Of a stretch of 64,000 nucleotides of DNA, positions 4,258 to 18,960 are shown piece after piece (the stretch's first letter is position 1; every line of letters begins with the position of its first letter). This stretch comes from an uncultured delta proteobacterium (GTDB taxonomy: Bacteria > Myxococcota_A > Polyangia > Polyangiales > Polyangiaceae): assembly GCA_963841435.1 (NCBI GenBank), contig CAWJCS010000006.1:1088001-1152000 (forward strand). The letters run 5' to 3'. The notes beneath the pieces were generated by a model. It ran no database searches, was not told the DNA's origin, and saw only the letters and a program-made list of their open reading frames with translations. The position numbers and the translations under genes are program-made.

Positions 4258-4383
4258 GGCCGAGCGGTGGCCTCCGTTGCCTCGCGGCGGCGCGCTCTCG
4301 TGCCGCCGCCGTGCGGGCCGGGGAGCCGGAGGCCGATCGGCTCTTGACCTTGAGCCCCTCAAAGGTAGGCTTCGCGCCCGTTT

Positions 4384-4456
4384 TCCAGAGTAGCTCAGTC
4401 GGTAGAGCAGGCGGCTGTTAACCGCCGGGTCCCTGGTTCGAGTCCAGGCTCTGGAG
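4384..4456 (+). tRNA. tRNA-Asn(GTT)
   Basis: Cloverleaf: TCCAGAG/CTCTGGA acceptor, GCTC/GAGC D stem, GGCGG-CTGTTAA-CCGCC anticodon arm, CCTGG-TTCGAGT-CCAGG T arm. Confidence 0.97.
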
Positions 4457-4458
4457 CC
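4410..4458 (+). repeat. attL core, 49-bp direct repeat (3' part of tRNA-Asn)
   Basis: Identical to 15126-15174. Confidence 0.95.
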
Positions 4459-4477
4459 CAGAAAAACAAGCCGATTC

Positions 4478-4495
4478 GCAGCCGAAAGAGGCTGC
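4478..4495 (+). terminator. Hairpin downstream of the tRNA (possible terminator)
   Basis: GCAGCC-GAAAGA-GGCTGC; no clear U-tract. Confidence 0.35.
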
Positions 4496-4550
4496 AACGT
4501 CGATCGGCGAAGGTGGTGATAAATCCCGGCAAGTGGTGGACGACGGGTGT

Positions 4551-4576
4551 GACGTTGCCCCCGCACTGCCCCCGGG
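4551..4576 (+). repeat. Candidate integrase arm-type sites (tandem TGCCCCCG)
   Basis: 25/26 identical to 15045-15070. Confidence 0.65.
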
Positions 4577-4616
4577 GCGCTGGCGTCCGAGCCCGCGGGC
4601 GCGGTACGTTTCTCCG

Positions 4617-4817
4617 GTGGAGCAAGGCACGGCCCGGCGTCTCGCCAAGATCGCGGGGGAGACACTCCGCGAGGGCGGTATCCTGGTGCTTGTGTTCGGG
4701 CTCCTCGACAATCGAATGAGCGACCACCCGCACCCACACCCCTGGGATTTCTGGATCGTAGGTATCGGGTTGTCGTGCATCGTGCTGGGCGGCATACTCG
4801 AAGCGAGGAGCCATTGA
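4617..4817 (+). CDS. Small 2-TM membrane protein (66 aa)
   Basis: GTG 6 nt after a TACGTT -10-like hexamer; two hydrophobic segments; TGATG coupling to next ORF. Confidence 0.55.
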   Translation: MEQGTARRLAKIAGETLREGGILVLVFGLLDNRMSDHPHPHPWDFWIVGIGLSCIVLGGILEARSH

Positions 4818-4969
4818 TGCTAGGCGAGTACCAACCCTTGGTGTTGCTGACCGGCGTATTCACGCTGCTCACCTTCGTTGGCTTCCTGCTCGACTATCGC
4901 GCGCACCATCCGCGTCGTTCGCGCCGCGACTCGGGCGAGCTTTCGCACGGACGCCAGGCCCGTACGTAG
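4817..4969 (+). CDS. Single-TM microprotein (50 aa)
   Basis: GAGGAG RBS, TGATG overlap, hydrophobic segment then basic tail. Confidence 0.55.
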   Translation: MLGEYQPLVLLTGVFTLLTFVGFLLDYRAHHPRRSRRDSGELSHGRQART

Positions 4970-5036
4970 CCACCAAACGCACGAACGCCCCCGAGCCGCG
5001 AGGGGCCCGAGGGCGTCCGAGTGCGCGACGCGAGCC

Positions 5037-5201
5037 CTAGCCGACGAGGCGCATCACGTCGGCCGCTTCCTTCGACGCCAGCGGCTCCGGCACGCGGTAG
5101 ACGATCACGAGCACGTTGCGGGCGTCGTCTCGGGTGACCGCTTCGCCCTCGCGGTCGCGGCGCTCGCGAAGCACGGCCGCGACTTGTTCGATGCGGCTCA
5201 C
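5037..5201 (-). CDS. Hypothetical protein (54 aa)
   Basis: GTG start overlaps the upstream stop (GTGA coupling). Confidence 0.45.
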   Translation of the reverse strand: MSRIEQVAAVLRERRDREGEAVTRDDARNVLVIVYRVPEPLASKEAADVMRLVG

Positions 5202-5683
5202 GACGCACCGCCGACTGCGCGCATGAACGCGGCCACGTAGATCGCCCGCGCCTCGTCGAGCCCCAAGGGCGCGACCGCCTCGGGCCCGCCCTCGTCGGCC
5301 GTCCACGCCGCGAACGCCTCGCCCGCGTACGTGGCCGCGTCCGCGATCTCGCCCTCGTTCACGTAGTTCCGCGCGTCCGTTGCGGCCTCGGCTTCGATTG
5401 CCTCGCGTGCGGCGGCGTGCTCCGCGCGCGCCGCCGCGACCGCAATCGCCTTCGCGACCGCGAACGCCTCGAGCCGCCCGGCGTGCGCGGCCAAGGACAT
5501 GATCGCGAGTGACGCCCGTTGCGCTTGGGCGTGAATCGTCGCGGCGACGTGCTTTAGGAGCTCGGGCGTGGACGGCTCGGCGCTCGCCGCGTCCGTGAGC
5601 TGGGTGGCGATTTGTGCGAGGCATGCGCTCGCCCCGCACGCGCTCGCGAGGGTATCTTGAATCGGATATGGTTCGTGCGTCAT
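5198..5683 (-). CDS. Hypothetical alpha-helical protein
   Basis: ATG with GAAGGA RBS, downstream of structured leader copy 1. Confidence 0.6.
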   Translation of the reverse strand: MTHEPYPIQDTLASACGASACLAQIATQLTDAASAEPSTPELLKHVAATIHAQAQRASLAIMSLAAHAGRLEAFAVAKAIAVAAARAEHAAAREAIEAEAATDARNYVNEGEIADAATYAGEAFAAWTADEGGPEAVAPLGLDEARAIYVAAFMRAVGGAS

Positions 5684-5694
5684 GGCTGGTCCTT

Positions 5695-5788
5695 CCAGTC
5701 GTGGCCAGCCCGGCGGACGGTGACACGTCGCGCCGGGCACCTATTGCTAGGGGGGTGGGATTACCCCGCGTGGTGGTACGGCCGCGGG
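5695..5788 (-). repeat. Structured leader repeat, copy 1
   Basis: Shares CCAGTCGTGGCCAG, TTGCTAGGGG and CCCCGCGTGGTG(G/C)TACGGCCGCGGG blocks with 6774-6865. Confidence 0.75.
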
Positions 5789-5816
5789 CTGCCCCGATCT
5801 TCCCCCGTCCCGCTTT

Positions 5817-6488
5817 TCAGCGCCGTCGCGGGCGCTGCGACGGTGCCGGCGGGTCCGGGCGGTAGCAGTCGCCGAACCACGCGGCCGATAGCGAAATCAG
5901 GCTATTGCAGGCAGCCCCGAGCTGGGCGGCTGGGCCAGCCGTTGCAGCGAAAACCCTCTTTCCCATTTCTCGGGCGACCTTGACCGCGTGCGTGTAGTCG
6001 CCGTCCGCGGAAAGCACGTACGCGGTGTCGTACTCATCCCGCTGGGCCATCGCGACCATGTTGACCGCGAGCATCACGTCCACCGCTTTCTCAACCATCA
6101 CTCGGACGGAATCGTGCCGCCGAGCGATTTCGTACAATTCGCCACGGATCTTCGGATCGATCCTCTCGCGAAGACCGCCCAAGTACTGAAGTAGCTCTTT
6201 CGCTGCGCCGTCCTTGGCGGGGCGCCCCTCGAGCCGGCCAAAGTGCGCCGAGAACCGCGAGTCTTCTGCTTCGATTTGCGTGATGAAACGGCGTTGGTCG
6301 GCGTAGAGCTGCGCGCTGTAGTCTTGCGGCACGCGGCCGATGTAGTAGCGAAGCCCGACCAGCGTGCGCGGCCCCAAGAGCTTCCGCGCAATGCTCGCGT
6401 AGCTGAGTCGGCCTAGGTCAACGCCGCAGGCCCGGAGGGAGTGATACCAGTTGTTTCCGTCAATGAAGACGACCGCCCGGTCTGGCAT
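5817..6488 (-). CDS. NYN domain (LabA/DUF88, PIN-like) ribonuclease
   Basis: Motifs VFIDGNN, EKAVDV, LSADGDY, REMGKRV with all four acidic residues. Confidence 0.9.
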   Translation of the reverse strand: MPDRAVVFIDGNNWYHSLRACGVDLGRLSYASIARKLLGPRTLVGLRYYIGRVPQDYSAQLYADQRRFITQIEAEDSRFSAHFGRLEGRPAKDGAAKELLQYLGGLRERIDPKIRGELYEIARRHDSVRVMVEKAVDVMLAVNMVAMAQRDEYDTAYVLSADGDYTHAVKVAREMGKRVFAATAGPAAQLGAACNSLISLSAAWFGDCYRPDPPAPSQRPRRR

Positions 6489-6502
6489 GACACCCTAAGA
6501 AG

Positions 6503-6539
6503 AAAAAACCCCAGCGTGCGGGAGCACCGGACGCTGGGG
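6503..6539 (-). terminator. Intrinsic terminator immediately upstream of the NYN gene
   Basis: Minus strand CCCCAGCGT-13 nt-ACGCTGGGG-TTTTTT. Confidence 0.8.
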
Positions 6540-6577
6540 GGGTCAACATCCCGCGCCCCGTAGGGTCGGGATGACAG
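6503..6577 (-). ncRNA. Candidate ~75-nt structured RNA or leader upstream of NYN
   Basis: CATCCCG/CGGGATG stem with inner CCC-TACG-GGG, then terminator; promoter directly upstream. Confidence 0.5.
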
Positions 6578-6582
6578 AGGTC

Positions 6583-6610
6583 AAGTTAGTTCGCGCGGGG
6601 CCCCGCGCAA
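6583..6610 (-). promoter_or_regulatory. sigma70-like promoter with overlapping 16-bp palindrome
   Basis: TTGCGC-N16-TAACTT; GCGCGGGGCCCCGCGC at 6593-6608. Confidence 0.55.
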
Positions 6611-6644
6611 CACAAAAAACGCCGACGCCAGCAGAATCAACACC

Positions 6645-6758
6645 CTACGCCACCGCAGCCAAGGCCGCGTCCACGCTCGCGAAGCGCCGCACCCCGCCGA
6701 GCTCGTGCAGCGTGACGCCCGCGCCCGATACCTGGACCACGGCGCCCGGGTTCGCCAT
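6645..6758 (-). CDS. 37-aa ORF paralogous to the C-terminus of 7095-7496
   Basis: MANPGAVVQVSGAGVTLHELGGVRRFASVDAALAAVA, translated by hand; absent from the ORF track. Confidence 0.45.
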   Translation of the reverse strand: MANPGAVVQVSGAGVTLHELGGVRRFASVDAALAAVA

Positions 6759-6773
6759 GCGCCAGGCCCGGAG

Positions 6774-6865
6774 CCAGTCGTGGCCAGGCGCCCGGCTGCT
6801 TGTAACAGCGCGGGCGCCACCTTGCTAGGGGCGGGATTGCCCCCGCGTGGTGCTACGGCCGCGGG
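6774..6865 (-). repeat. Structured leader repeat, copy 2
   Basis: See copy 1. Confidence 0.75.
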
Positions 6866-6879
6866 TGCGGCGGCCTTCC

Positions 6880-7098
6880 TTAGGCGTATGTCGAGCGCGA
6901 AATGTCGACTGCGACGTGCCACGCCCACGGCGTGACCCGAAAAAGCCTAGCGGGATGGCCGCCGAGACTGGCCGCTTCCGCGTTCCGCCCGCGAGCGCGT
7001 AAATCGGCCACCCAAGCGCCGCGCTGGGCGTCCGTGATCGGCTTGCCGTCGAGCGCGGCAAAGCCCTCGGAGTTTACGTAGGCGACGATCGCGATCAT
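6880..7098 (-). CDS. Hypothetical protein (72 aa)
   Basis: ATGA coupling with upstream ORF. Confidence 0.5.
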   Translation of the reverse strand: MIAIVAYVNSEGFAALDGKPITDAQRGAWVADLRARGRNAEAASLGGHPARLFRVTPWAWHVAVDISRSTYA

Positions 7099-7496
7099 GA
7101 TCGAACCGCGGCCACGGCCGATGCTAGGTCGCGGAACTTCTGAACGCGGCCGATTTCGTGGAGCGCGATGCCGCGCCGCGACACGTGCACGACGGCTCCA
7201 GGCGTTCGTTCGCGCCACGAACGGAGGGCATCGAGCGCGTCCACGGACACGGGCATCGCGCCGCGCCGCGCGTTGGCTCGCGATCGCTCGCGCCCGCGCG
7301 AAGCCGTTGGCCGTTCGCCGCGCTGGGCGGCCAAGCGCGCGGGCTTTTGCAGCCGTGCGGCCCAAACTGGTTGGGGTACGCCGAGCTTCTTTGCAAGTAC
7401 GCGAGCCCGGCATCGGAGCGAAGCGCGTTCGCCATGACACGCGCCTGGACTCAGTGCATCGTGGCGCGCCCGTAATTGACTGAGTGTGAGGGCCAT
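7095..7496 (-). CDS. Hypothetical protein
   Basis: Starts 1 nt after upstream stop; C-terminal ~45 aa duplicated at 6645-6780. Confidence 0.5.
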   Translation of the reverse strand: MALTLSQLRARHDALSPGACHGERASLRCRARVLAKKLGVPQPVWAARLQKPARLAAQRGERPTASRGRERSRANARRGAMPVSVDALDALRSWRERTPGAVVHVSRRGIALHEIGRVQKFRDLASAVAAVRS

Positions 7497-7497
7497 T

Positions 7498-7653
7498 TTA
7501 GCGTGCCCCTCGCGATCGATGCAGTCGTTGACGAGCGCGCTCCTCGCGGGCGCGGTCTTTACGCGCTTTTCGTTCGTTGAGCCTCTCGCGCACTTGTTCG
7601 ACGGGTATCTCGCGAACTTGCTCGTAGGGGGTCCTCGGGTCGTCTAGTTGCAT
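7498..7653 (-). CDS. Small basic hypothetical protein
   Basis: Co-oriented ORF behind a hairpin leader. Confidence 0.45.
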   Translation of the reverse strand: MQLDDPRTPYEQVREIPVEQVRERLNERKARKDRAREERARQRLHRSRGAR

Positions 7654-10813: not shown

Positions 10814-10953
10814 CGGCGGCGGGCGTGGCGCGGGGCGGGGCGGGGCGGGCGGGCGGGCGGGCGTGGCGCGGGCGCGGGCGTGGCGTGGCGCGGGGCGGGC
10901 GGGCGTGGCGCGGGGCGGGCGGGCGTGGCGCGGCGCGGGCTCGGGCGGCGGCC
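10814..10953 (+). repeat. A-free G-rich tract with ~20-nt tandem units; G-quadruplex-capable
   Basis: 140 nt without A; GGGCGTGGCGCGGGGCGGGC units; seven G3-4 runs at 10832-10861. Confidence 0.8.
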
Positions 10954-11239: not shown

Positions 11240-13369
11240 TCACGCTACCCGCACCGGCCGCGCGAACCGACCGATCGTCTTGGTGCCGGCGATAGCGTCG
11301 CGCACGTCCGTGTCGGGCGCCGCGGCGCCGGTCTCGGTCAGGGCTATCGCACCCATTGTGCGCACGGCGAATTTGGCGTCCACGAGGCGCGCCACGGCGC
11401 GCTCGGCTGGCCGAGTGCCCTCGCCGCCGGCCGATACGAGATCGCGCGTGGCATGGTTCTGGTTGTCGCGGAGCACGTCCCAAATACGATGGCCGGCCGC
11501 GATCGTCTTGGCCTGCGCCTCTTGGGTGCGGCGCTCGTCTTGCGGTCGCTTGCCCACGGCCTCGCTAGGCTTTGCCGTGCGCGCGACGCGTAGCGCCTTC
11601 CCGGTCGGAGCACCCTCGCATGGCGCATCCGTGAACTGGACGCGGAACGGCGCGAACGCCTTGCGCACCTCTCGCGAGCACGACACGTCGATCACGGTAC
11701 GATCGTCGCTCGTGCGCTCGAGACTGATGGCCGCTTGCACGGCCGCGGGCGCCGAGTTGTGGCCGCTCATCTTGTGGAGCCCGGTCGCGCTCGTACTCTT
11801 GTTTTCGTGTAAGAGCGCGACGATCAGCGCGCCGGTCACGTCGCTCACCTTGCCGAGTTCCTTTAGCCAGTGCGCGAACTTGTTGGAGTTATGCTCGATG
11901 TCGCCGGGCAACGAGGAGCCGTACGTGTCGATCGCAACGAAGCCGATCCGTTGTTCTTCGATGTACGCCGCGAGGTCGTCTAGAAATCCGTTCGTGGCGA
12001 CCGACGAATCGACGTGCATGAAGTGCAGCGGCACCGCGGCACGGTCGAGCCCGAGGCCTGCGCACAGTCGCGCTTCGCGCTCCTCGGTTAGGGTGCCGCC
12101 CTCGAACGCCAGAAACAGCGCGTTGCGTTGCTTCACGTCGAACCCGAGGAACGGCTTGCCGGCCGCAACGCAGATCGACATGAGCAGCGCGAACGGCGTC
12201 TTTGCCACGTTCGCGAACGCCTGAATCGCGCTCACCTTGCCCGGAGCGAGGTCGAGCCCCTCGATCACGTACTCGAGCGGGTCAGGCAGCTTGGAGCGGT
12301 CCGCCATGCGCCCGTGGCGCAGTAAGCCCGCGGGCGTTCCCTGCTCGGGTGGCGCGTGCGCACTCGAGGCGCCGTCGTCATCGTGCGCGGCGCGTTCGCG
12401 TGCCGCGGCGCCGTGCCGCGCGAGCGCGCTCGAGACGCCGCGTAGCGCGTCACGTTCCGTGGCCACGTGCGCGCACGCACGTTCCGCGGCGCGGCGCAGC
12501 TTTTCGCGCCCGCCGGCTTCCGTCACCCAAGGCGGCGCGCATAGTGGATCCCACACGTCGGCGAGCACGCGATCGGTCGCGTCCACGTCGCAATCGAGCT
12601 CCGCGGCGAGGCGTATCGCCGCGCGGTTCATGGCGTCGTCGCCGCCGTGGTGAGAGACACTGACGGGCAGCACGCACGCGAGCGCGTGCGCGCGCGCGAG
12701 GCGCGCGTCATTTGCGGGCGCGTCCGGGTCGCGTGGCGTGCTCGAGCTCGCCTTGCTTGCGTCGCGGTCGAGTGCATCGCACCACCCGGCCGGTAGTGCC
12801 GTGATCTCCTGGACGATAGTCCACGCGTATTCACCCTTCGCGGAGCGTGACGGAGCCACGACGATTTGCCCGCCCTGCGATCGCAAGTCGATGCCCGCGA
12901 TCTTGCGGACGTTGTTCTTGGGGAGCGCTCGCACGGCCGGCCACTCGTAGATCCGGTGCTGCCCGCCGCCGCCCGTACGCGCCGTGAGCGTCGCCGGCAA
13001 GGCGCCTAACTGCGCTTCCGCGCGCGCGAGCGCGCCGGGCTCGTCCTCGTCGAGCGCTACAAGCAAGCGCCCATCCGGCTGCGCGCCCATGCGCAAACCG
13101 ACGTTGCCGCCGCGATCGATCCACGCGTCTACCGCGGCCGCGTCCACGGGCGCGGTTTGCCAGCCCTTGGCGATCGGTATCTTGCCGCCCTTGTGGATGC
13201 AGATCGGCGCGAGGCCTATGTCGGCATACTTCGCGGCGATGGACGACGGCGCCCCGTTGCGCGTCTCGCTCTCCGGCACGGCCGCCCCAGACGCGGGCTT
13301 GATTGCGGGGGCTTGCTTACGGGCGGATTTATGGGATGATTTCATGGTCTGTTTCGTTTCTGTTTTCAC
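11240..13369 (-). CDS. Bifunctional DNA primase/polymerase (Prim-Pol) fused to AAA_25/RepA-like helicase
   Basis: NVGLRMG, LVALDED, RTGGGGQHRIY, IDLRSQGGQIVVAPS; Walker A-like AFANVAKT, FLAFE, Walker B FVAIDT, LLHENK. Confidence 0.9.
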   Translation of the reverse strand: MKTETKQTMKSSHKSARKQAPAIKPASGAAVPESETRNGAPSSIAAKYADIGLAPICIHKGGKIPIAKGWQTAPVDAAAVDAWIDRGGNVGLRMGAQPDGRLLVALDEDEPGALARAEAQLGALPATLTARTGGGGQHRIYEWPAVRALPKNNVRKIAGIDLRSQGGQIVVAPSRSAKGEYAWTIVQEITALPAGWCDALDRDASKASSSTPRDPDAPANDARLARAHALACVLPVSVSHHGGDDAMNRAAIRLAAELDCDVDATDRVLADVWDPLCAPPWVTEAGGREKLRRAAERACAHVATERDALRGVSSALARHGAAARERAAHDDDGASSAHAPPEQGTPAGLLRHGRMADRSKLPDPLEYVIEGLDLAPGKVSAIQAFANVAKTPFALLMSICVAAGKPFLGFDVKQRNALFLAFEGGTLTEEREARLCAGLGLDRAAVPLHFMHVDSSVATNGFLDDLAAYIEEQRIGFVAIDTYGSSLPGDIEHNSNKFAHWLKELGKVSDVTGALIVALLHENKSTSATGLHKMSGHNSAPAAVQAAISLERTSDDRTVIDVSCSREVRKAFAPFRVQFTDAPCEGAPTGKALRVARTAKPSEAVGKRPQDERRTQEAQAKTIAAGHRIWDVLRDNQNHATRDLVSAGGEGTRPAERAVARLVDAKFAVRTMGAIALTETGAAAPDTDVRDAIAGTKTIGRFARPVRVA

Positions 13370-13695: not shown

Positions 13696-13964
13696 GAGAA
13701 AACTCGCTTCCCGGCAAAGCCGGGTGTCGTTTTCCCGTGGCGCGCATTCGACGTTGACCGCTGCTCCCTTGGCCCGGCGTTTTGAGATTCCGGAGGAGCC
13801 GGCTCCCCCACCAGCCTCGGGGGAGCTCTATCGCACTGCGCGCCCGCCCATTCGGCATCAATGGGACGGGCAGTCTTGTTTGGTTTTTCGCTCGGATCAT
13901 CCCGAGCACACCCCAAGCGTGAACCGAGATCCCACCGGTGGCAAGTCGAGGTACTCTCGCGGCC

Positions 13965-15104
13965 ATGCCCCGCCCTTCCCGCTCTGGCATTCGTGGTCTC
14001 TACCGCGACGCGGACGGCCGGTACCGGATCGATCTTCGTTACACGGACCCCGCGGGCGTCGAGCGTCGCCACAAGGAACGGCTCCCCGAGGGTACGCCCG
14101 CGCTCGCGGCGCGTGCACGGGCGACGGACGTGCTTACGATGGCGCTCGCCGGCAAGCTGCACGAACGCGGCGAGGACGCACCCACGGGGCTTCGGTCCGC
14201 GTTCGACGAGTATCGGCGGCTCACGGCGCCCGCGAACCCGAAGCAACGTGAGCGCCACTGCAAGGTGCTCCTCGCCGCGTTCGGCGACGTGGCCTTGGCC
14301 GAAGTGAACGAGCTCGCGATCGAGCGTTTCAAGCGTGCCCGCGCTACCGGCAAGTCGCCGAGCACGGTCAATCGCGAGCTGCAGACTTTGCGGCATTTCC
14401 TGAATTGCGCCGTGGAATGGCGCTGGCTCGAGGCGCGCCCCAAGGTGCGCATGTTCAAGGAACCGCCCGGCCGCGTTCGCTGGCTTTCGGACGGCGAGCG
14501 AGCGAGGCTCTATGGTGCGTTGCCCGCCCGGTTCAAGCGCGTCGTGCTCGCGGCGGCGCTGTCAGGGCAACGGCTCGCCAACGTGATCGGCATGCGACGG
14601 GCGGACGTGGACACCGCGGCGCGCAGCATTTCGATCCCTAAGACGAAATCGGGGAAGCGTCACGACGTACCCATGTCCGACGCGCTCGCGGTCGTGATCG
14701 CGGAAGCCATCGCGGACGGCGACGCGCAAGCCAAGCGGCGCGAGGTCGATCCCCCGGCGCACGTGTTCGTTTCGCGCTTCGGGAAGCCTTACACGTCGAG
14801 CGGCGTCTCGGGTCTGTTCCGCAAGTGCGTCGCCGATGCCGCCGTGAAGGACTTCCGCTTTCACGACTTGCGGCATGACTTCGCGACCCGCGTCCGTCGT
14901 GCGGGGCATGGGCTCGACGTGGTCCAGGCCCTCTTGGGTCACTCGACGCCGGCCATGACGGCGCGCTACGCGCACATTGGACGGTCGGAACTACACGAGG
15001 CGGTCAGCGCCGTTGCGGCTAGGGCAGGCGGCGAAAAGTCACGCGACGTTGCCCCCGGACTGCCCCCGGGTAGAGTGCAACGACGCGCGAAGCGGCGTAA
15101 ATAA
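13965..15104 (+). CDS. int: Tyrosine recombinase / phage integrase
   Basis: SGQR, KTK, FHDLRH, LLGHS, TARYAH catalytic residues; ends 21 bp before attR. Confidence 0.95.
   Translation: MPRPSRSGIRGLYRDADGRYRIDLRYTDPAGVERRHKERLPEGTPALAARARATDVLTMALAGKLHERGEDAPTGLRSAFDEYRRLTAPANPKQRERHCKVLLAAFGDVALAEVNELAIERFKRARATGKSPSTVNRELQTLRHFLNCAVEWRWLEARPKVRMFKEPPGRVRWLSDGERARLYGALPARFKRVVLAAALSGQRLANVIGMRRADVDTAARSISIPKTKSGKRHDVPMSDALAVVIAEAIADGDAQAKRREVDPPAHVFVSRFGKPYTSSGVSGLFRKCVADAAVKDFRFHDLRHDFATRVRRAGHGLDVVQALLGHSTPAMTARYAHIGRSELHEAVSAVAARAGGEKSRDVAPGLPPGRVQRRAKRRK
15045..15070 (+). repeat. Candidate integrase arm-type sites, second copy (inside int 3' end)
   Basis: Matches 4551-4576. Confidence 0.65.
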
Positions 15105-15125: not shown

Positions 15126-15174
15126 GGCGGCTGTTAACCGCCGGGTCCCTGGTTCGAGTCCAGGCTCTGGAGCC
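15126..15174 (+). repeat. attR core (duplicated tRNA-Asn 3' part)
   Basis: 49-bp identity with 4410-4458; ends GCC followed by A. Confidence 0.95.
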
Positions 15175-15203: not shown

Positions 15204-16462
15204 TGTGTTGGCTACTTCGCCGATCCGCACGCGCGGGGGCCGCGTCGCACGGCGTCGCGGAGCACTACGCCGCCCGCCGGTAGTGGTGATGCAGTCCACC
15301 AAGGACCGGAATTGCGCTGACCGTGCCCGTCGCCCGTTCTTCGACCGTCGCCGAACCCACAGGGACCCGTTGCTTCAGGCCCTGATGCGGTCGGCTCGCG
15401 TTGAAGTAGGCGACATACTCACCCAGGGTGGCCTCGAGGTGACGAGTTCCGAGGATGATGATGTGGTCGAGACACTCGCGTCGCACCGAACCGAGGAACC
15501 GCTCGCAGGTGGCGTTGACCAGCGGCGAGCGTACAGGGCACTTGAGGACGCGAGTGCCGGCGCCGCGAGCTGCGCGATCGAAGTCGGCGCCGAATTTGCT
15601 GTCTCGATCGCGAATGATGAACTCCGGCCCCTGACCGAATGGAGTGGCGTTGCGCAGTTGTTGGGCGACCCAGGTCCTCGTGGGGGAGCGAGTGACTCCC
15701 ACGTGAACGACGCGCTTCGTGTTCACATCAACGATGAAGAACGCGAAGATGGGCAGGAACCATACGTCGTGGAGCTGCAAGAAGTCGCAAGCCCAGACCG
15801 TGTGGTTCTGGAGGAAGGTGCGCCAGGACTGTCCGTCGCCCGGTGGGCGCGGTGCTCGAAGGTGGCGCTGAATCGTGCGCTTGGAGACGTGAATGCCGAG
15901 CTTCAAGAGCTCACCCCGGATACGCTCGGCGCCCCAGAGCCGATTCGCTCTCGCCATGCGCTGGATCAGCTCAATCGTGGATCCGGCGACGCGTGGCGGC
16001 GCGGCTCGCCGACGTTTCGACTTCCACTTCCACAGAAGTCTGAAGCCTTCGCGATGCCAGCGCAGGACGGTGGTCGGGCTCACGATGAGGGTCGCGTCCC
16101 GCCAGGTTCGACAGAGCGAGCTCACGAGCACCATCAGGGCGCGGTCAGTTGTTGTGAGCTGCGGACGGCGCGCGGTTCGCCGGGCGACGATGAGCTGCTG
16201 TCGGAGAAGAGCATTCTCGGCGAGCAGCTGGGCGCGAGTACGGAACGCATCGCGCGCGAGACCGGCCGCGGCGGAGGTGGGGCGCAGCGCATCTAGCACC
16301 GCGTCGCGCAAGTGGCCGGTAGCGGTTCGGAGCGCGGCGGTCAGCGCGGAAAGCACGGCCCGATTTTCGCGCGGTGCGTGGACGAAGAACAAGACTGGTA
16401 GTTCCGCGACGAAACTGGCTAGCTCTGCAGCGGTTAGATTCGTGTTGAGTGTTTCGTAAACA
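15204..16462 (-). mobile_element. Insertion sequence with rve/DDE transposase (IS481/IS3-like)
   Basis: TGT...ACA termini within GCCTGT/ACAGGC; truncates the adjacent AbiEii-like gene; no target duplication seen. Confidence 0.7.
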
Positions 16463-16467
16463 GGCAA
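15265..16467 (-). CDS. Integrase core domain (DDE) transposase; true start is internal
   Basis: WGAERIRGEL, WACDF, IRDRDSKF, ERFLGSVRRECLD, YFNASRPHQGL. Confidence 0.9.
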   Translation of the reverse strand: MPVYETLNTNLTAAELASFVAELPVLFFVHAPRENRAVLSALTAALRTATGHLRDAVLDALRPTSAAAGLARDAFRTRAQLLAENALLRQQLIVARRTARRPQLTTTDRALMVLVSSLCRTWRDATLIVSPTTVLRWHREGFRLLWKWKSKRRRAAPPRVAGSTIELIQRMARANRLWGAERIRGELLKLGIHVSKRTIQRHLRAPRPPGDGQSWRTFLQNHTVWACDFLQLHDVWFLPIFAFFIVDVNTKRVVHVGVTRSPTRTWVAQQLRNATPFGQGPEFIIRDRDSKFGADFDRAARGAGTRVLKCPVRSPLVNATCERFLGSVRRECLDHIIILGTRHLEATLGEYVAYFNASRPHQGLKQRVPVGSATVEERATGTVSAIPVLGGLHHHYRRAA

Positions 16468-17117
16468 CAGCCTTCCCGCGCGAGAGCGCGTCGAGCTTCT
16501 CGAGGAGCGTCACCAATGGGTGCACGCACCGCACGGCGCGCGGTCGGTTGTCGGTGTATCCGCCGAGTTGGTCGCGCCGCTCCAGCCAATCGTGGACGAA
16601 CGAGCTGAGGGGCTTCTCGACGAAGGGCACCACGCGCGCGCGGCCGATCTCGAAGAACACGTAGGGGCTCATCGCCTCTGAGAGCTGGTCGAGCAGCACG
16701 CCCGGGTATCGGCCCACAAGGTTGATCCCGCGCGCGTACTTGTCCTGCGCCTTCTCGTCGATCTCCACCTTCACGGAGGGGATGGAGAACGCGCCAGGGA
16801 GCGCCTCGTAGAAGGCGCGCCTCGCCGCGATCGGCCCCTTGTTCACGCTGGTCCAGTTGGCGACGGCGGGCAGGCCCGTGACGGTCCCGTGCTGGACCAT
16901 CAAGTCGAGATCTTCGGAGAAGCGCTGGATGACGCCGTAGCCCTTCGAGAGGCTGGTGCCACCCTTGAACCAGAGTTCGAGCCCCGTCTGGTGCAGGGCC
17001 CACATGCAGTGCGTGACCCAGTAGTCCTTCTCAACCAAACGAAGGGTCGATGCGCGTTTCGCCTGCGACGAGCCGCAGCACCTGCACGAAGTCAGGGTCA
17101 TCGTGGACGAAGCTCAC
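16466..17117 (-). pseudogene. AbiEii/AbiGii-family nucleotidyltransferase toxin, frameshifted (~17040) and truncated by IS
   Basis: VEKDYWV, FKGGTSLSKGYGVIQRFSEDLDL, TLLEKL; sequence ends at the IS boundary. Confidence 0.85.
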
Positions 17118-17245
17118 GTGCCGTGCGCCTCCCTCGAACCCACTCGCGGATCGCCCTGCAAGCCTCGTCAACGGGGATGCGCGGCCCCCAGAACTTCCCC
17201 AGTTGCGCGCCAGCGTTTGCTCGACCACCGTGGCACGAGCCAGCT

Positions 17246-17382
17246 CGACTTCACTAAAACCGCCTGGTTCACGTGAGCGGTAGACCTAGGTTTTTTAGTG
17301 AAGTCGCCGCGTTGGCCGGGCAGCAAGGTTTACTGAAATAGGCTTGCTTCACCTTCGGGTGAACTCATGCTATTTAGTGAAG
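17246..17382. promoter_or_regulatory. Inverted-repeat operator array (TTCAC/GTGAA) between divergent AbiE-like units
   Basis: CGACTTCACTAAAA (17246)/TTTTAGTGAAGTCG (17293); TTCACCTTCGGGTGAA (17348); TTTAGTGAAG (17373). Confidence 0.6.
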
Positions 17383-17383
17383 C

Positions 17384-18433
17384 ATGGCCGTTCGACCTAA
17401 GGAAAAGCAGCTCGTTGCGGAAGTTCCCGCGGCGCTGGCGAGCCTCCTGGACGTACCCCAGGAGGACGTGAACGTCGAGGCTGGGAGCGAGGCTGACCTG
17501 CTCGTGAGCGCGGCTGGGCACTCCTTCGTGGTCGAGGTGCTCGGTGCCGCGTCGCCTGGTGCGCTGGCGGCCCACGCCTCGCAGGTGGCCGCTGCTGCCC
17601 GCCGCCAGGGTCGAAAGGCAGTGCCGCTCCTGGTGGTGCCCTTCATGAGCGACGCGGGGCGCAGGGTCTGCGAGGCCGCGAGCATCCCGTGGTTCGACCT
17701 CAGCGGGAACGCGCACATCGTCGCGCCCGGCATCCGGATCATCGTCGACGGGCGGCCCAATCGCTTCCGTGGGCCGGGCCGCCCAGCGAGCATCTTTGCG
17801 CCCAAGAGCGCACGCGTCGTGCGCTGGCTGCTCGAGAACGAAGGTCGCCCCCTCACGCAGCGGGAGATCGCGCGCGCGACCGACATGACCGACGGCTTCG
17901 TCAGCCGCATCGCTTCTCGTCTTGAGGATGAGAGCTACGTCGTACGCGAAGCAAGCGGCGCGCTCCGCGTGAAGGACCCGGCGCTCCTTCTCGATGCGTG
18001 GCGCGACGAGTACCGCTTCGACAAGCATGTGCTCCTCCAGGGGCACGTCGCCGCGCGCTCGGGTGACGCGCTCGCCCGCTTCGTCGGCGACACGCTCGCG
18101 GAGGGCTCGGTCGAGCACGCAGCCACCGGCCTCGCAGCGGCTTGGCAGATGACGCACTTCGCTGCGTTTCGCATCGCGACGTTCTTCCTCGCCGAGTCCC
18201 CCTCGAAGGAGCTGCGTGAGAAGCTCGGCTTCCGCGAGGACGCCCGCGGTGCGAACCTCTGGCTCGTGCTTCCGAGCGATGCCGGCGTGTTCCACGGAGC
18301 CGAGACACAGGGCGGCCTGCGCTGCGTCCACCCAGTGCAGGCCTACGTCGATCTCAAGGCGCACCCCGAGCGCGCGACAGAAGCGGCCGAGCGTCTGCGA
18401 AGCGAGCTGCTGAGCTGGAGGCATGATGGCTGA
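17384..18433 (+). CDS. Type IV TA antitoxin, AbiEi-like (wHTH)
   Basis: WFDLSGNAHI, LTQREIARAT HTH, LLDAW, VHPVQAYVDL...ERATEAAE. Confidence 0.75.
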   Translation: MAVRPKEKQLVAEVPAALASLLDVPQEDVNVEAGSEADLLVSAAGHSFVVEVLGAASPGALAAHASQVAAAARRQGRKAVPLLVVPFMSDAGRRVCEAASIPWFDLSGNAHIVAPGIRIIVDGRPNRFRGPGRPASIFAPKSARVVRWLLENEGRPLTQREIARATDMTDGFVSRIASRLEDESYVVREASGALRVKDPALLLDAWRDEYRFDKHVLLQGHVAARSGDALARFVGDTLAEGSVEHAATGLAAAWQMTHFAAFRIATFFLAESPSKELREKLGFREDARGANLWLVLPSDAGVFHGAETQGGLRCVHPVQAYVDLKAHPERATEAAERLRSELLSWRHDG

Positions 18434-18960
18434 GAAACCCAAGCACGCGTCGGAGTACAAGAGCGAGCAGGTCGAGCTCGTTCGCGCGATGTGCCTCTAC
18501 GTCTCCACGAAGCTCGGCGACATGATGGACGGCGGACTTCGCGGCGATCATCGCCCCGGGGCTGCGCTGCGCGTTCCGGGATCGCAAGCAGGTGACCCTC
18601 AAGGGAACGACCTTCTTCGGCGAGAAGGCGACGCGGGACATCTGGGTGTGCGACGCCGGCGCGTACGTGGTGCTCAAGGCTCTCGCGTTCGACAGCCGCG
18701 GCGAGAACAAGGACGCCTACGACCTCCACTACGTCGTCCGGAACTACGGCACGGGCCCGACCGACGTCGCTTCGAAGCTGCAACCGCTGCTCGACGATGC
18801 CGACGCCCGGCGCGCACTGACCATCCTGAAGCGCGACTTCTCTGAGCCAGACGCGGTCGGGCCGATGCGGGTCGCGGCCTTTGTCAGCGGTGGAAAGGAC
18901 GAGCAGCTTCAGGCGGATGTGGTTGGCTTCATAGGCCAGCTGCTGGTGACGTTGCACTGA
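18426..18960 (+). pseudogene. Nucleotidyltransferase-like partner of AbiEi with internal deletion
   Basis: N-terminus breaks at ~18530 before any catalytic motifs; C-terminal VVLKALA...KDAYDL is in another frame. Confidence 0.65.

Follow-up and report, generated by a model that had tools for sequence, protein, structure and literature searches.

The 64,000-nt stretch of Polyangiaceae DNA analyzed here (hereafter referred to as the window) contains two ~93-nt repeats, at 5695-5788 and 6774-6865, which flank an NYN gene. The repeats had been regarded as structured leaders of the neighbouring genes, and this locus raises the question of whether they encode an RNA and, if so, on which strand.

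The repeats and the family they belong to

The repeats lie in a 10.7-kb integrative element inserted at a tRNA-Asn gene, and the genes of the element face the latter. Its integrase showed a generic Phage_integrase match only. The features considered here are as follows.

4410..4458 (+): attL, a 49-nt direct repeat, the 3' part of tRNA-Asn (4383-4460)
15126..15174 (+): attR, the identical 49-nt repeat, bounding the 10.7-kb integrative element
13938..15104 (+): tyrosine integrase of the element
11240..13369 (-): Prim-Pol + AAA_25 primase-helicase of the element
7095..7496 (-): P0002 gene, 133 aa, marker of the element family
6880..7098 (-): 72-aa ORF of no family, which stops 14 nt before copy A
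6774..6865 (-): repeat copy A, with the blocks given in the preliminary description
6787..6818 (+): central hairpin of copy A (39.9 bits with the model R2, see below)
6645..6758 (-): 37-aa ORF past copy A, a P0002-like C-terminal fragment (53% identity over 34 aa)
6508..6633 (-): two hairpins with T runs that resemble sense-strand terminators, past the 37-aa ORF and ahead of the NYN gene
5817..6488 (-): nuclease gene with an NYN domain (PF01936, E 1.3e-15), the cargo enclosed by the repeats
5695..5788 (-): repeat copy B, comprising the 5' extension, the central hairpin and TGGCCACGACTGG

On the minus strand, both copies comprise two hairpins, CCCGCG...CGCGGG and GGGGC...GCCCC, followed by CCCCTAGCAA and a hairpin of 12 bp in which one C is bulged (the central hairpin). 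The sequence of the last is GGCGCCCG-c-GCTG-ttacaag-CAGC-CGGGCGCC for copy A and GCCCGGCG-c-GACG-tgtcac-CGTC-CGCCGGGC for copy B. In both copies TGGCCACGACTGG comes next, and an ATG lies 15 nt past it in copy A (6758-6756) and 11 nt past it in copy B (5683-5681). A 25-nt pattern, CCCGCGGCCGTANCACCACGCGGGG, occurred exactly twice in the window against none expected (100 shuffles), and a 13-mer of the repeat had exactly two perfect occurrences; with up to two mismatches, the 13-mer matched three times against 2.09 expected, which is not above chance. A third copy in the genome (copy C; G000:C6:882433-882530) shares 87% identity over 97 nt, and its inner stem bears an additional compensatory change, GGTG/CACC. 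Across nine sequences of the central hairpin, 7/12 pairs change on both sides and 95.3% of the cells are paired, a covariation that 0/500 shuffles equalled. Thus, the preliminary description was confirmed both in the two structured copies bracketing the NYN gene, whose blocks are present on the minus strand, and in the central hairpin that differs in sequence yet pairs. Single-sequence folding of ~116-nt stretches of the two copies was unexceptional (z -1.7 and -1.2), and the 5' extension folded both ways gave no asymmetry between the orientations.

A model built from nine hairpins (R1; match threshold of E<=0.01) detected the motif in 33/47 genomes of the genus (Polyangiaceae), with 1-5 copies per genome, and in 13/150 other genomes of the order (14/151 counting G000). 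The preliminary description had made covariance-model homologues with covariation a check of its proposal, and they were found for the central hairpin and its 3' side only, not for the whole 93 nt. The motif usually lies directly past the stop codon of a ribbon-helix-helix (RHH) gene: the hairpin follows the stop codon of the upstream gene by 3-13 nt and, in most relatives, precedes the ATG of a variable small downstream gene by 20-30 nt. The upstream ORFs of 17/33 instances share one BLAST cluster, RHH_1 or NikA-like domains were detected in 10/16 upstream ORFs tested, and the downstream genes split into 18 BLAST-unlinked groups among 35 instances; many of the instances are relatives, so neither these counts nor those given below represent independent events. 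Unlike most relatives, the copies in the window have an upstream gene that is not RHH. Excluded from the counts were partial or reverse-strand model matches of <50 nt, exact duplicates, three dubious matches with no nearby ATG (L058, L059 and L051:164), and instances with the ATG not 14-45 nt from the hairpin.

A pattern scan of genome contigs returned 17 stretches, 12 of them true and all bearing Polyangiaceae, Myxococcales, Sorangium or "Proteobacteria" MAG titles. The other five, of which three were in named Actinomycetota genera, one in an Actinomycetota MAG and one in a "Proteobacteria" MAG, were chance matches lacking stem complementarity. The exact-pattern scan of IMG/VR gave no match for either the long form or the common hairpin. 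A check of Rfam, which the preliminary description had also put forward, yielded no described family for the motif, either in the window or at the loci of six relatives: the gathering-threshold scan of the whole window detected tRNA-Asn only, Rfam 15 at E<=10 over window positions 5000-7600 gave three chance-level matches elsewhere and none at the motif, and six representative relatives' loci had nothing at E<=1 at the motif.

Several other identities were considered and set aside. The hairpin-1 pattern of the 5' extension matched 79 metagenome stretches, which proved to be coding sequences, terminators and tRNA flank; on inspection, none then carried the remainder of the motif. By eye, the 5' extension contains no acceptable -10/-35 pair of a sigma-70 promoter and no GG-N10-GC spacing of a sigma-54 promoter. 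The integron attC site is an imperfect palindrome with a conserved R''/R' core (GTTRRRY) at the stem base, located at the 3' end of a cassette and served by the IntI integrase; no GTTRRRY core was seen by eye at the stem base of the motif. REP elements were ruled out by the 1-5 copies per genome, and a double-strand DNA operator by the outer stem, which covaries rather than keeping its sequence.

The strand that folds

The evidence points to the strand opposite to the neighbouring genes (antisense; plus in the window) as the one that folds and functions. In a set of 39 distinct hairpins, departures from Watson-Crick pairing on the sense strand comprised 22 C.A cells, 5 A.C cells, a single G.U and 4 U.G, the last confined to the terminal pair. 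As the C.A mismatches on the sense strand are G.U pairs on the antisense strand, the latter is likely the strand that folds. RNAalifold on 50 antisense sequences recovered compensatory changes at 10/12 pairs, two positions carrying U.G in 21 and 8 of the sequences, respectively, and the hairpin was more stable on the antisense than on the sense strand in 46/50. The 10 nt past the hairpin contained 4.7 T on average on the antisense strand (at least 4 T in 40/50) versus 0.9 T on the sense strand, against a background of 0.17 per base; the T-rich tail, being confined to the antisense strand, argues for the same conclusion. Judged from hairpin stability and T counts, the antisense strand of the family combines a GC-rich hairpin with a U tail, as expected for an intrinsic terminator.

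The stretch between the hairpin and the start codon showed the same asymmetry. On the antisense strand, an unbroken helix (stem-loop 1; mean 6.4 bp) extends between the AU of CAU and the GU of GUGG and reaches at least 5 bp in 30/34 instances with both anchors, the 16/50 sequences without a CAT or GTG anchor being omitted from these counts; on the sense strand, the helix is interrupted past its first base pair in 34/34. G.U accounts for 62 of the 219 stem-loop 1 pairs. The MFE of the 30-nt body was -11.8 on the antisense strand (z -3.2) versus -5.9 on the sense strand (z -0.65), and the antisense strand was the more stable in 49/50, although it is G+U-rich by composition (the sense strand containing a purine-rich Shine-Dalgarno), which alone favours antisense folding energies. 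A two-helix model (R2) gave 51 matches, in whose alignment 98.0% of the cells pair and both-side changes occur at 7/7 pairs in helix 1 and 10/12 in helix 2; this alignment (A10) was fitted to the structure of the model, which favours pairing. Covariation was reached by 0/500 shuffles, and slid controls gave 40-56%. A covarying stem-loop over the Shine-Dalgarno and start codon that forms on the antisense strand only thus indicates that this strand folds.

A -10-like box was found at a fixed place. On the antisense strand, TANNNT occurred in the +0..+19 bin of the downstream gene in 32/49 instances, as compared with 0-13 in the other 20-nt bins and 3 in the same bin of the sense strand; the extended form, TGNTANNNT, occurred 11 times in this bin and 0-2 times elsewhere. 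The 3' T of the box lies 33-38 nt from the hairpin in 30/48 instances (codon-shuffle mean 3.8, maximum 11; 1000 shuffles), and a box upstream of the hairpin on the antisense strand again argues for folding of that strand. The box is absent from the expected place in 14/49 instances, including copy A. A consensus sigma-70 scan of window positions 4400-7600 gave no site, and a strict -35/-10 rule was satisfied in 0/48 instances, with no -35 element found; thus, the case for a promoter stands on the -10-like box only.

In the three copies of this genome, the terminator hairpins contain no G.U pair, the sense-strand form is at least as stable as the antisense form in copies A and C, and the tails are only moderately T-rich (3-4 T in 10). 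Within the window, the choice of strand depends on stem-loop 1 and the box of copy B.

A predicted antisense RNA and its alternatives

We regard it as probable, from these sequence features, that the conserved core of the repeat is the gene for a ~65-70-nt cis-antisense RNA of mobile elements in soil myxobacteria, which would keep the downstream gene from being translated. The core most likely consists of the central hairpin and the stretch to the start codon, which leaves the 5' ~48 nt of the repeat outside the account given by the model. Copy B looks complete, every part of the proposed unit being present.

5198..5683 (-): P0001 gene, 161 aa, the proposed target of the copy B antisense RNA
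5667..5672 (+): -10-like TANNNT box TATGGT, read from the sequence, inside P0001 codons 4-6
5679..5748 (+): predicted ~68-nt cis-antisense RNA of copy B, both ends putative
5682..5702 (+): stem-loop 1, AUGGCUGG-uccuu-CCAGUCGU, 8 bp
5708..5738 (+): stem-loop 2, formed by the central hairpin (12 bp, one G bulged), the proposed intrinsic terminator
5739-5748 (+): tail ACCTATTGCT, 3' of stem-loop 2

Copy B matched R2 at window positions 5662-5750 (+) with 49.6 bits, and the 3' T of TATGGT lies 35 nt from its terminator hairpin. Its stem-loop 1 has two wobble pairs (one U.G and one G.U) among the 8 bp, breaks after 1 bp on the sense strand, and is the complement of the P0001 start codon and Shine-Dalgarno region. 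The P0001 family is found downstream of the motif in 9/35 instances; the protein has no Pfam or PHROG family and no Atlas match above 0.80.

From the observed repeats, covariation, strand asymmetry and positional motifs, we infer transcription, the two ends and a regulatory effect of the RNA. A -10-type promoter hidden within codons 3-7 of the downstream gene would drive transcription, and the 5' end would lie near the complement of the start codon. The first stem-loop would bear the anti-Shine-Dalgarno sequence, and the RNA would end at the GC-rich bulged-G hairpin and its U-rich tail, which would serve as an intrinsic terminator immediately next to the end of the upstream gene. The RNA may pair with the complementary ribosome-binding region of the mRNA and so block downstream translation or trigger decay. 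Owing to the G.U pairs, both stem-loops would be stable in the antisense RNA but only weakly formed in the mRNA, which has C.A mismatches and no U tail, and sense transcription could therefore read through. Such a hairpin, with G.U on one strand and C.A on the other, can terminate one way and be transparent the other way. What the preliminary description called a cis-regulatory RNA thus survives as a conserved, covarying RNA-type structure at the cassette boundary, on the opposite strand according to the strand evidence. Its notion of an antisense target comes close. In the present reading, the repeat would harbour the terminator stem-loop of a cis-antisense RNA together with half of its 5' stem-loop. 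A sense-strand riboswitch or attenuator leader, which would fold in the mRNA with alternative terminator and antiterminator helices, was not borne out, given the C.A mismatches on the sense strand, 0.9 T in the 10 nt past the hairpin and no Rfam match.

The motif could instead act in the mRNA, with no antisense RNA, as an intercistronic stabiliser, a processing site or a means of Shine-Dalgarno sequestration, and would then set the level of downstream translation, possibly with the RHH protein or another factor bound. Its fixed position between the stop codon and the next Shine-Dalgarno and ATG suits such an element, the inner Watson-Crick part of stem-loop 1 (GGAAG/CUUCC or CUGG/CCAG, for instance) can form in the mRNA and cover the Shine-Dalgarno, and the central hairpins of this genome are equally stable on the sense strand. 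We nevertheless consider this unlikely: across the family, the sense strand has 27 C.A or A.C mismatches against one internal G.U, its outer pairs in stem-loop 1 do not form in 34/34, the body folds no better than shuffles (z -0.65), and both the T-rich antisense tail and the TANNNT box at a fixed distance are unaccounted for.

These last two features, together with the fixed Shine-Dalgarno/ATG distance, are also unexplained if the motif works as DNA only, that is, as homology stretches or a single-strand DNA hairpin site for cargo exchange, any RNA role being incidental. Three copies with three different upstream neighbours, copy A truncated exactly inside the motif and then followed by a gene fragment, sister elements with a single copy and without NYN, and 18 BLAST-unlinked downstream groups among 35 would all agree with exchange, and G.T pairs would likewise stabilise a DNA hairpin on the antisense strand. 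Homology alone does not explain covariation that preserves pairing, and an unsystematic look found no consistently adjacent recombinase; a role in DNA only is thus rather improbable in our judgement. The hairpin and T-rich tail on the antisense strand, and genes of the element that face the tRNA gene, may also suggest an antisense-facing terminator with no dedicated small RNA, serving as an insulator against read-in from downstream, for instance from the tRNA-Asn promoter. That reading appears very improbable, as stem-loop 1 with its anti-Shine-Dalgarno loop and the TANNNT box at 33-38 nt would have no place in it.

Known countertranscripts and a possible exchange of cargo

The immunity RNAs P1 c4 and P4 CI are processed from longer transcripts and act in trans by pairing on repeated seed targets. 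Being small phage or satellite RNAs that pair with leader targets in more than one copy, they bear some likeness to the predicted RNA, whose gene and target are, in contrast, two strands of the same DNA. The parallel with these RNAs drawn in the preliminary description fits less well than CopG/RNAII of pMV158 or Arc/sar of P22. RNA-OUT of IS10 is a cis-encoded antisense RNA covering the ribosome-binding site of a mobile-element gene. SymR is reported to be a cis-encoded antisense RNA of a type I toxin-antitoxin system that covers the ribosome-binding site (PMC1891008). The present motif differs from both in its RHH operon context and in having no transposase or toxin signature downstream.

The sar RNA of P22 has a two-hairpin shape. 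The immunity I region of P22 comprises arc (an RHH repressor), the antisense RNA sar, which blocks translation of the next gene, and ant, and this unit belongs to a highly variable 'moron' phage region (PMC2629481, PMC13397905). The likeness lies in the place of the small antisense RNA, which in the motif is a predicted one, after a gene for an RHH repressor and before the gene that follows. The sequences are not similar, the hosts belong to another phylum, and the targets here are not recognisable antirepressors. In copG-rnaII-repB of pMV158, the 48-nt RNAII overlaps the copG-repB intergenic region and ends in an intrinsic terminator made of an 8-bp stem with a bulge, a loop of 6 nt and a U-rich tail (PMC4485353). 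The motif, as predicted, shares with pMV158/pLS1 the order of an RHH (CopG-type) gene followed by a short countertranscript complementary to the mRNA just upstream of the next start, and an end in a GC-rich terminator hairpin that has a 1-nt bulge, a 6-nt loop and a U-rich tail, as in RNAII (PMC4485353). In most relatives, a countertranscript is predicted on the opposite strand between the RHH gene and the next start, so that the unit resembles, by analogy, the combined control by protein and countertranscript in pMV158 or P22. The differences from pMV158 are nonetheless substantial. No sequence relation to the motif is detectable, and the predicted two stem-loops in ~68 nt compare with a 17-nt tail and one hairpin in 48 nt. 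The predicted RNA would overlap the start codon and be transcribed from a promoter within the coding sequence of the downstream gene; instead of a Rep initiator, the downstream genes encode diverse small proteins without known function; integrative elements and prophage-like loci of Myxococcota take the place of Gram-positive rolling-circle plasmids as hosts; and the copies in the window lack the upstream RHH gene. If the RNA is real, it would represent an undescribed Myxococcota small-RNA family, widespread in one genus and present in sister families, with clear covariation in two helices, and would extend the repressor-countertranscript circuit of Gram-positive plasmids and P22 to integrative elements of a distant phylum.

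The repeats had also been proposed to serve as homology arms for the swapping of cargo. Circumstantial evidence favours this: the upstream neighbours differ among the three copies of the genome (the 72-aa ORF, NYN and HicA), the sister elements possess a single copy and no NYN, and the fragment past copy A is P0002-like; P0002 homologues in the sister elements lie ~270 nt upstream of the same hairpin motif. It is conceivable, albeit rather unlikely, that the RHH gene and countertranscript constitute a portable translational gate and cargo-recombination junction of Polyangiaceae mobile elements. A gene landing downstream would then stay translationally silent until the element is induced, and the unit, being the only conserved sequence between unrelated cargo, would double as the recombination junction. 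The cargo would be the NYN and HicAB cassettes here and at least 18 unrelated downstream gene groups genus-wide, and the 5' extension with its two small hairpins might be a lineage-specific RNA domain or a protein-binding site. Such a logic, if true, would be an RNA-controlled counterpart of the integron platform. For annotation, the motif indicates where variable cargo begins in these poorly studied mobile elements, defence-type cassettes such as NYN and HicAB among it, and it cautions that what looks like a "structured leader" may reflect a gene of the opposite strand. As for copy A, which retains only the terminator hairpin and half of stem-loop 1, no -10-like box lies upstream of its hairpin on the plus strand and stem-loop 1 is only 3 bp; from its sequence, this copy looks like a partial copy or a scar of the recombination that brought the NYN cassette.

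Repeats and the integrative element carrying them

The pair of ~93-nt repeats with a compensatory central hairpin around the NYN gene, as claimed in the preliminary description, was confirmed as real and non-random: a 25-nt 5' block occurs twice in the window against 0 occurrences expected, and the arms of the 12-bp hairpin differ in sequence between copies A and B but retain complementarity. The two copies have in common a CCCGCG-N12-CGCGGG hairpin, a GGGGC-N6-GCCCC hairpin, CCCCTAGCAA, and the 12-bp hairpin with a bulged C (the central hairpin) followed by TGGCCACGACTGG. An ATG lies 15 nt beyond copy A and 11 nt beyond copy B. The inner stem of a third copy in the same genome (G000) is yet another variant, and the change is again compensatory.

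6865-6774, minus strand: repeat copy A (sequence comparison)
5788-5695, minus strand: repeat copy B (sequence comparison)
G000:C6:882433-882530: repeat copy C, the third copy
4410-4458 and 15126-15174: element boundaries (attL and attR), two identical 49-nt stretches from the 3' part of tRNA-Asn

Copies A and B sit within a 10.7-kb integrative element. Its genes include those for a tyrosine integrase and a Prim-Pol/AAA_25 primase-helicase, along with a series of small genes on the minus strand. The order towards the tRNA is P0002 (133 aa), a 72-aa ORF, copy A, a 37-aa ORF, two terminator-like hairpins, NYN, copy B, and P0001 (161 aa), P0001 being an element protein without a Pfam or PHROG family. 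The 37-aa ORF corresponds to the C-terminal end of a P0002-like gene, of which it is a fragment (34 aa aligned at 53% identity). Copy C is flanked by a HicB/HicA pair and a P0001 gene 94% identical to that of the window; the P0001 gene and the repeat aside, the two loci have nothing in common. The HicB-like ORF and the HicA toxin gene lie immediately upstream of copy C (L009:9983-10413; G000:C6, about 881.98-882.41 kb), and ~150 nt past the P0001 homologue there is an opposite-strand fragment resembling a tRNA T-arm end, with no ARAGORN call.

Several further features were observed in this genome. Another P0002 homologue (64% identity) was found at G000:C2:858974-859363 (L171) with no match to the hairpin model R1 (see below) within the 1.5 kb fetched on each side, and this locus may be a third related element without the motif, that is, the central hairpin and the stretch to the ATG. 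The two strong hairpins between the 37-aa ORF and the NYN gene (6501-6601, minus strand), the second with a T6 run, bear a sub-threshold Rfam resemblance to the Burkholderia anti-hemB sRNA (18.3 bits versus 49.5 needed), most likely merely because both are terminators. The gap on the downstream side of the Prim-Pol/helicase gene contains five overlapping G-rich repeat units (GGCGGGCGTGGCGCGGGG...) at 10818-10951, possible iterons of the origin of the element. Just beyond attR, 16145-18960 contains genes for an AbiEii-like nucleotidyltransferase and AbiEi-like regulators and a second AbiEii fragment, and the ORF at 1729-2184 is built of numerous GGYPPGG-type units in tandem (repeats of CCGGGCGGCGGTTACCCACCC).

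Distribution and gene context of the hairpin family

When 61 relatives were searched at the DNA level, the matches were partial and confined to the central hairpin and the part 3' of it. In an alignment of nine central hairpins, two-sided changes were found in 7 of the 12 pairs with 95.3% of the cells paired, and none of 500 shuffles was as good. R1, the model built from these nine, matched 33 of 47 genomes of the genus (E<=0.01) and 14 of 151 genomes of the order, G000 included, while the matches in a phylum-wide sample (n=151) were restricted to G000 and 2 of the 11 genomes of its own family (0 of the 139 others at 1e-4). Of 17 matches in an exact-pattern scan, 12 were true, from records titled as Polyangiaceae, Myxococcales, Sorangium or "Proteobacteria" MAGs, and 5 were due to chance. 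Homologues with covariation exist for the central hairpin and the part 3' of it. Rfam has no family for the motif. Diverged counterparts of the 5' ~48 nt of the repeat were found in P0002-type sister elements only; exact-pattern scans of IMG/VR and metagenomes did not find this part, and folding revealed no strand asymmetry in it.

In most cases the hairpin begins 3-13 nt past a small gene's stop codon, and its end is 20-30 nt ahead of a Shine-Dalgarno sequence and ATG. A single BLAST cluster of upstream ORFs covers 17 of 33 instances, many of which are from related genomes, so that the counts are not independent; the unpublished genome G033 contributes a single instance, L036, to counts of 35-51 rows, and no claim hinges on it. 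RHH_1 (ribbon-helix-helix, RHH) or NikA-like domains were detected in 10 of the 16 upstream ORFs tested, often with a KPKPKK tail. The lysine/proline C-terminal tail reads KPKPKPKK or KPKRPKPKK in the RHH proteins of L011, L017, L019, L023-L031 and other loci, and the A-rich codons for it also supply a portion of the T-rich stretch that ends the proposed antisense terminator. The downstream proteins fell into 18 unlinked groups among 35 by BLAST, the biggest (n=9) including P0001, and no Pfam family was found in 33 of the 34 tested. Two larger loci run from RHH through the motif and four or five small genes to a 527-557-aa tyrosine recombinase, and one of them adjoins a terminase. At L084:11455-19921 (G070:C2), BREX-type genes (BrxC/D, PglZ, DEAD helicase, AAA_14/DUF4143 ATPase) adjoin an RHH-motif-small gene module, which has two AbiEi_4 genes.

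The folding strand and a candidate promoter

The repeats had been regarded as a structured leader. The conserved, covarying structure is real; the favoured explanation is a predicted antisense RNA family encoded on the strand opposite the genes, with the leader as its imprint. Among 39 distinct hairpins read in the sense direction, the non-standard cells were C.A (22), A.C (5), U.G (4, all in the outermost pair) and G.U (1), and the C.A and A.C mismatches become G.U wobbles on the antisense strand. RNAalifold on 50 antisense sequences found compensatory changes at 10 of 12 pairs, with U.G in 21 and 8 sequences at two positions. The antisense form, the proposed terminator hairpin, was the more stable in 46 of 50, a difference to which the G+U-rich composition of the antisense strand adds. 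The 10 nt past the hairpin contain on average 4.7 T on the antisense strand (at least 4 in 40 of 50) and 0.9 T on the sense strand (background 0.17 per base).

A second helix (stem-loop 1) occupies the interval separating hairpin and ATG; its outer limits are the AU in the complement of the start codon and the GU in a conserved GUGGCC, and its loop and 3' arm contain the anti-Shine-Dalgarno sequence. On the antisense strand it is unbroken for a mean of 6.4 bp, and 30 of the 34 sequences with both anchors reach 5 bp or more (the 16 of 50 lacking an anchor were left unscored); G.U accounts for 62 of its 219 pairs. On the sense strand it is broken after one pair in all 34. The two-helix model R2 recovers 51 sites with 98% of cells pairing (slid controls, 40-56%), and two-sided changes occur at 7/7 pairs in one helix and 10/12 in the other, in an alignment fitted to the model and thereby biased towards structure.

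An antisense -10-like box (TANNNT) falls within codons 3-7 of the gene that follows. It occupies bin +0..+19 in 32 of 49 instances, against 0-13 in other 20-nt bins and 3 in the equal bin of the sense strand, and the extended box TGNTANNNT occurs 11 times in this bin and 0-2 times elsewhere. In 30 of 48 instances, 33-38 nt separate the box from the hairpin (codon-shuffle mean 3.8, maximum 11 in 1000). The box relies on codons of the form NTA, rare at this G+C content. It is missing in 14 of 49 instances; no -35 element was found, and strict promoter scans were empty. Altogether, mismatch type, tail, second helix, -10-like box and two-helix model agree that the antisense strand is the one that folds. 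As the three G000 copies have no G.U in the terminator hairpin and a tail of only 3-4 T, the strand call for them rests on stem-loop 1 and the box.

The copies of the window and known antisense systems

5667-5672, plus strand: -10-like box TATGGT, copy B
5681-5683, plus strand: CAT (start-codon complement), copy B
5682-5702, plus strand: stem-loop 1 (8 bp), copy B
5708-5738, plus strand: proposed terminator hairpin, copy B
6787-6818, plus strand: central hairpin, copy A

In copy B, GGCCA separates stem-loop 1 from the terminator hairpin, which is followed by the tail ACCTATTGCT, all on the plus strand. As all parts are present, an RNA of ~68 nt is predicted, which would be the full complement of the P0001 ribosome-binding region, and copy B looks like a complete predicted small-RNA gene. 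Copy A keeps the hairpin and the 3' arm of stem-loop 1; box and helix are absent, and it looks like a recombination scar marking a cargo insertion. The preliminary description had also supposed exchangeable cargo between the repeats, and this has circumstantial support in that the sister elements with P0002 homologues (G006 and G009) have a single motif ~270 nt past the homologue and no NYN. For this reason, we read the 1.08-kb inter-repeat segment as a putative insertion, brought by recombination within the motif that would have duplicated it. The best explanation of the repeat is that it bears the imprint of a predicted new family of cis-antisense small RNAs, with the 5' ~48 nt outside this explanation, and we lean towards the predicted antisense-RNA mechanism.

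Open-access papers, searched by words for antisense RNAs of myxobacteria or Sorangium associated with RHH genes, gave no description of the motif family. The closest described system is that of pMV158. The 48-nt RNAII of this plasmid overlaps the copG-repB intergenic region and is transcribed against it; in this RNA a tail is joined to a bulged hairpin, which with its U stretch serves as the terminator, and the RNA blocks repB translation jointly with the RHH repressor CopG (PMC4485353). P22 arc-sar-ant, the phage counterpart of this arrangement, lies in a highly variable moron region (PMC2629481, PMC13397905, PMC5415839). The Polyangiaceae family differs from both in sequence, size, host and target genes, whereas the logic and layout are alike.
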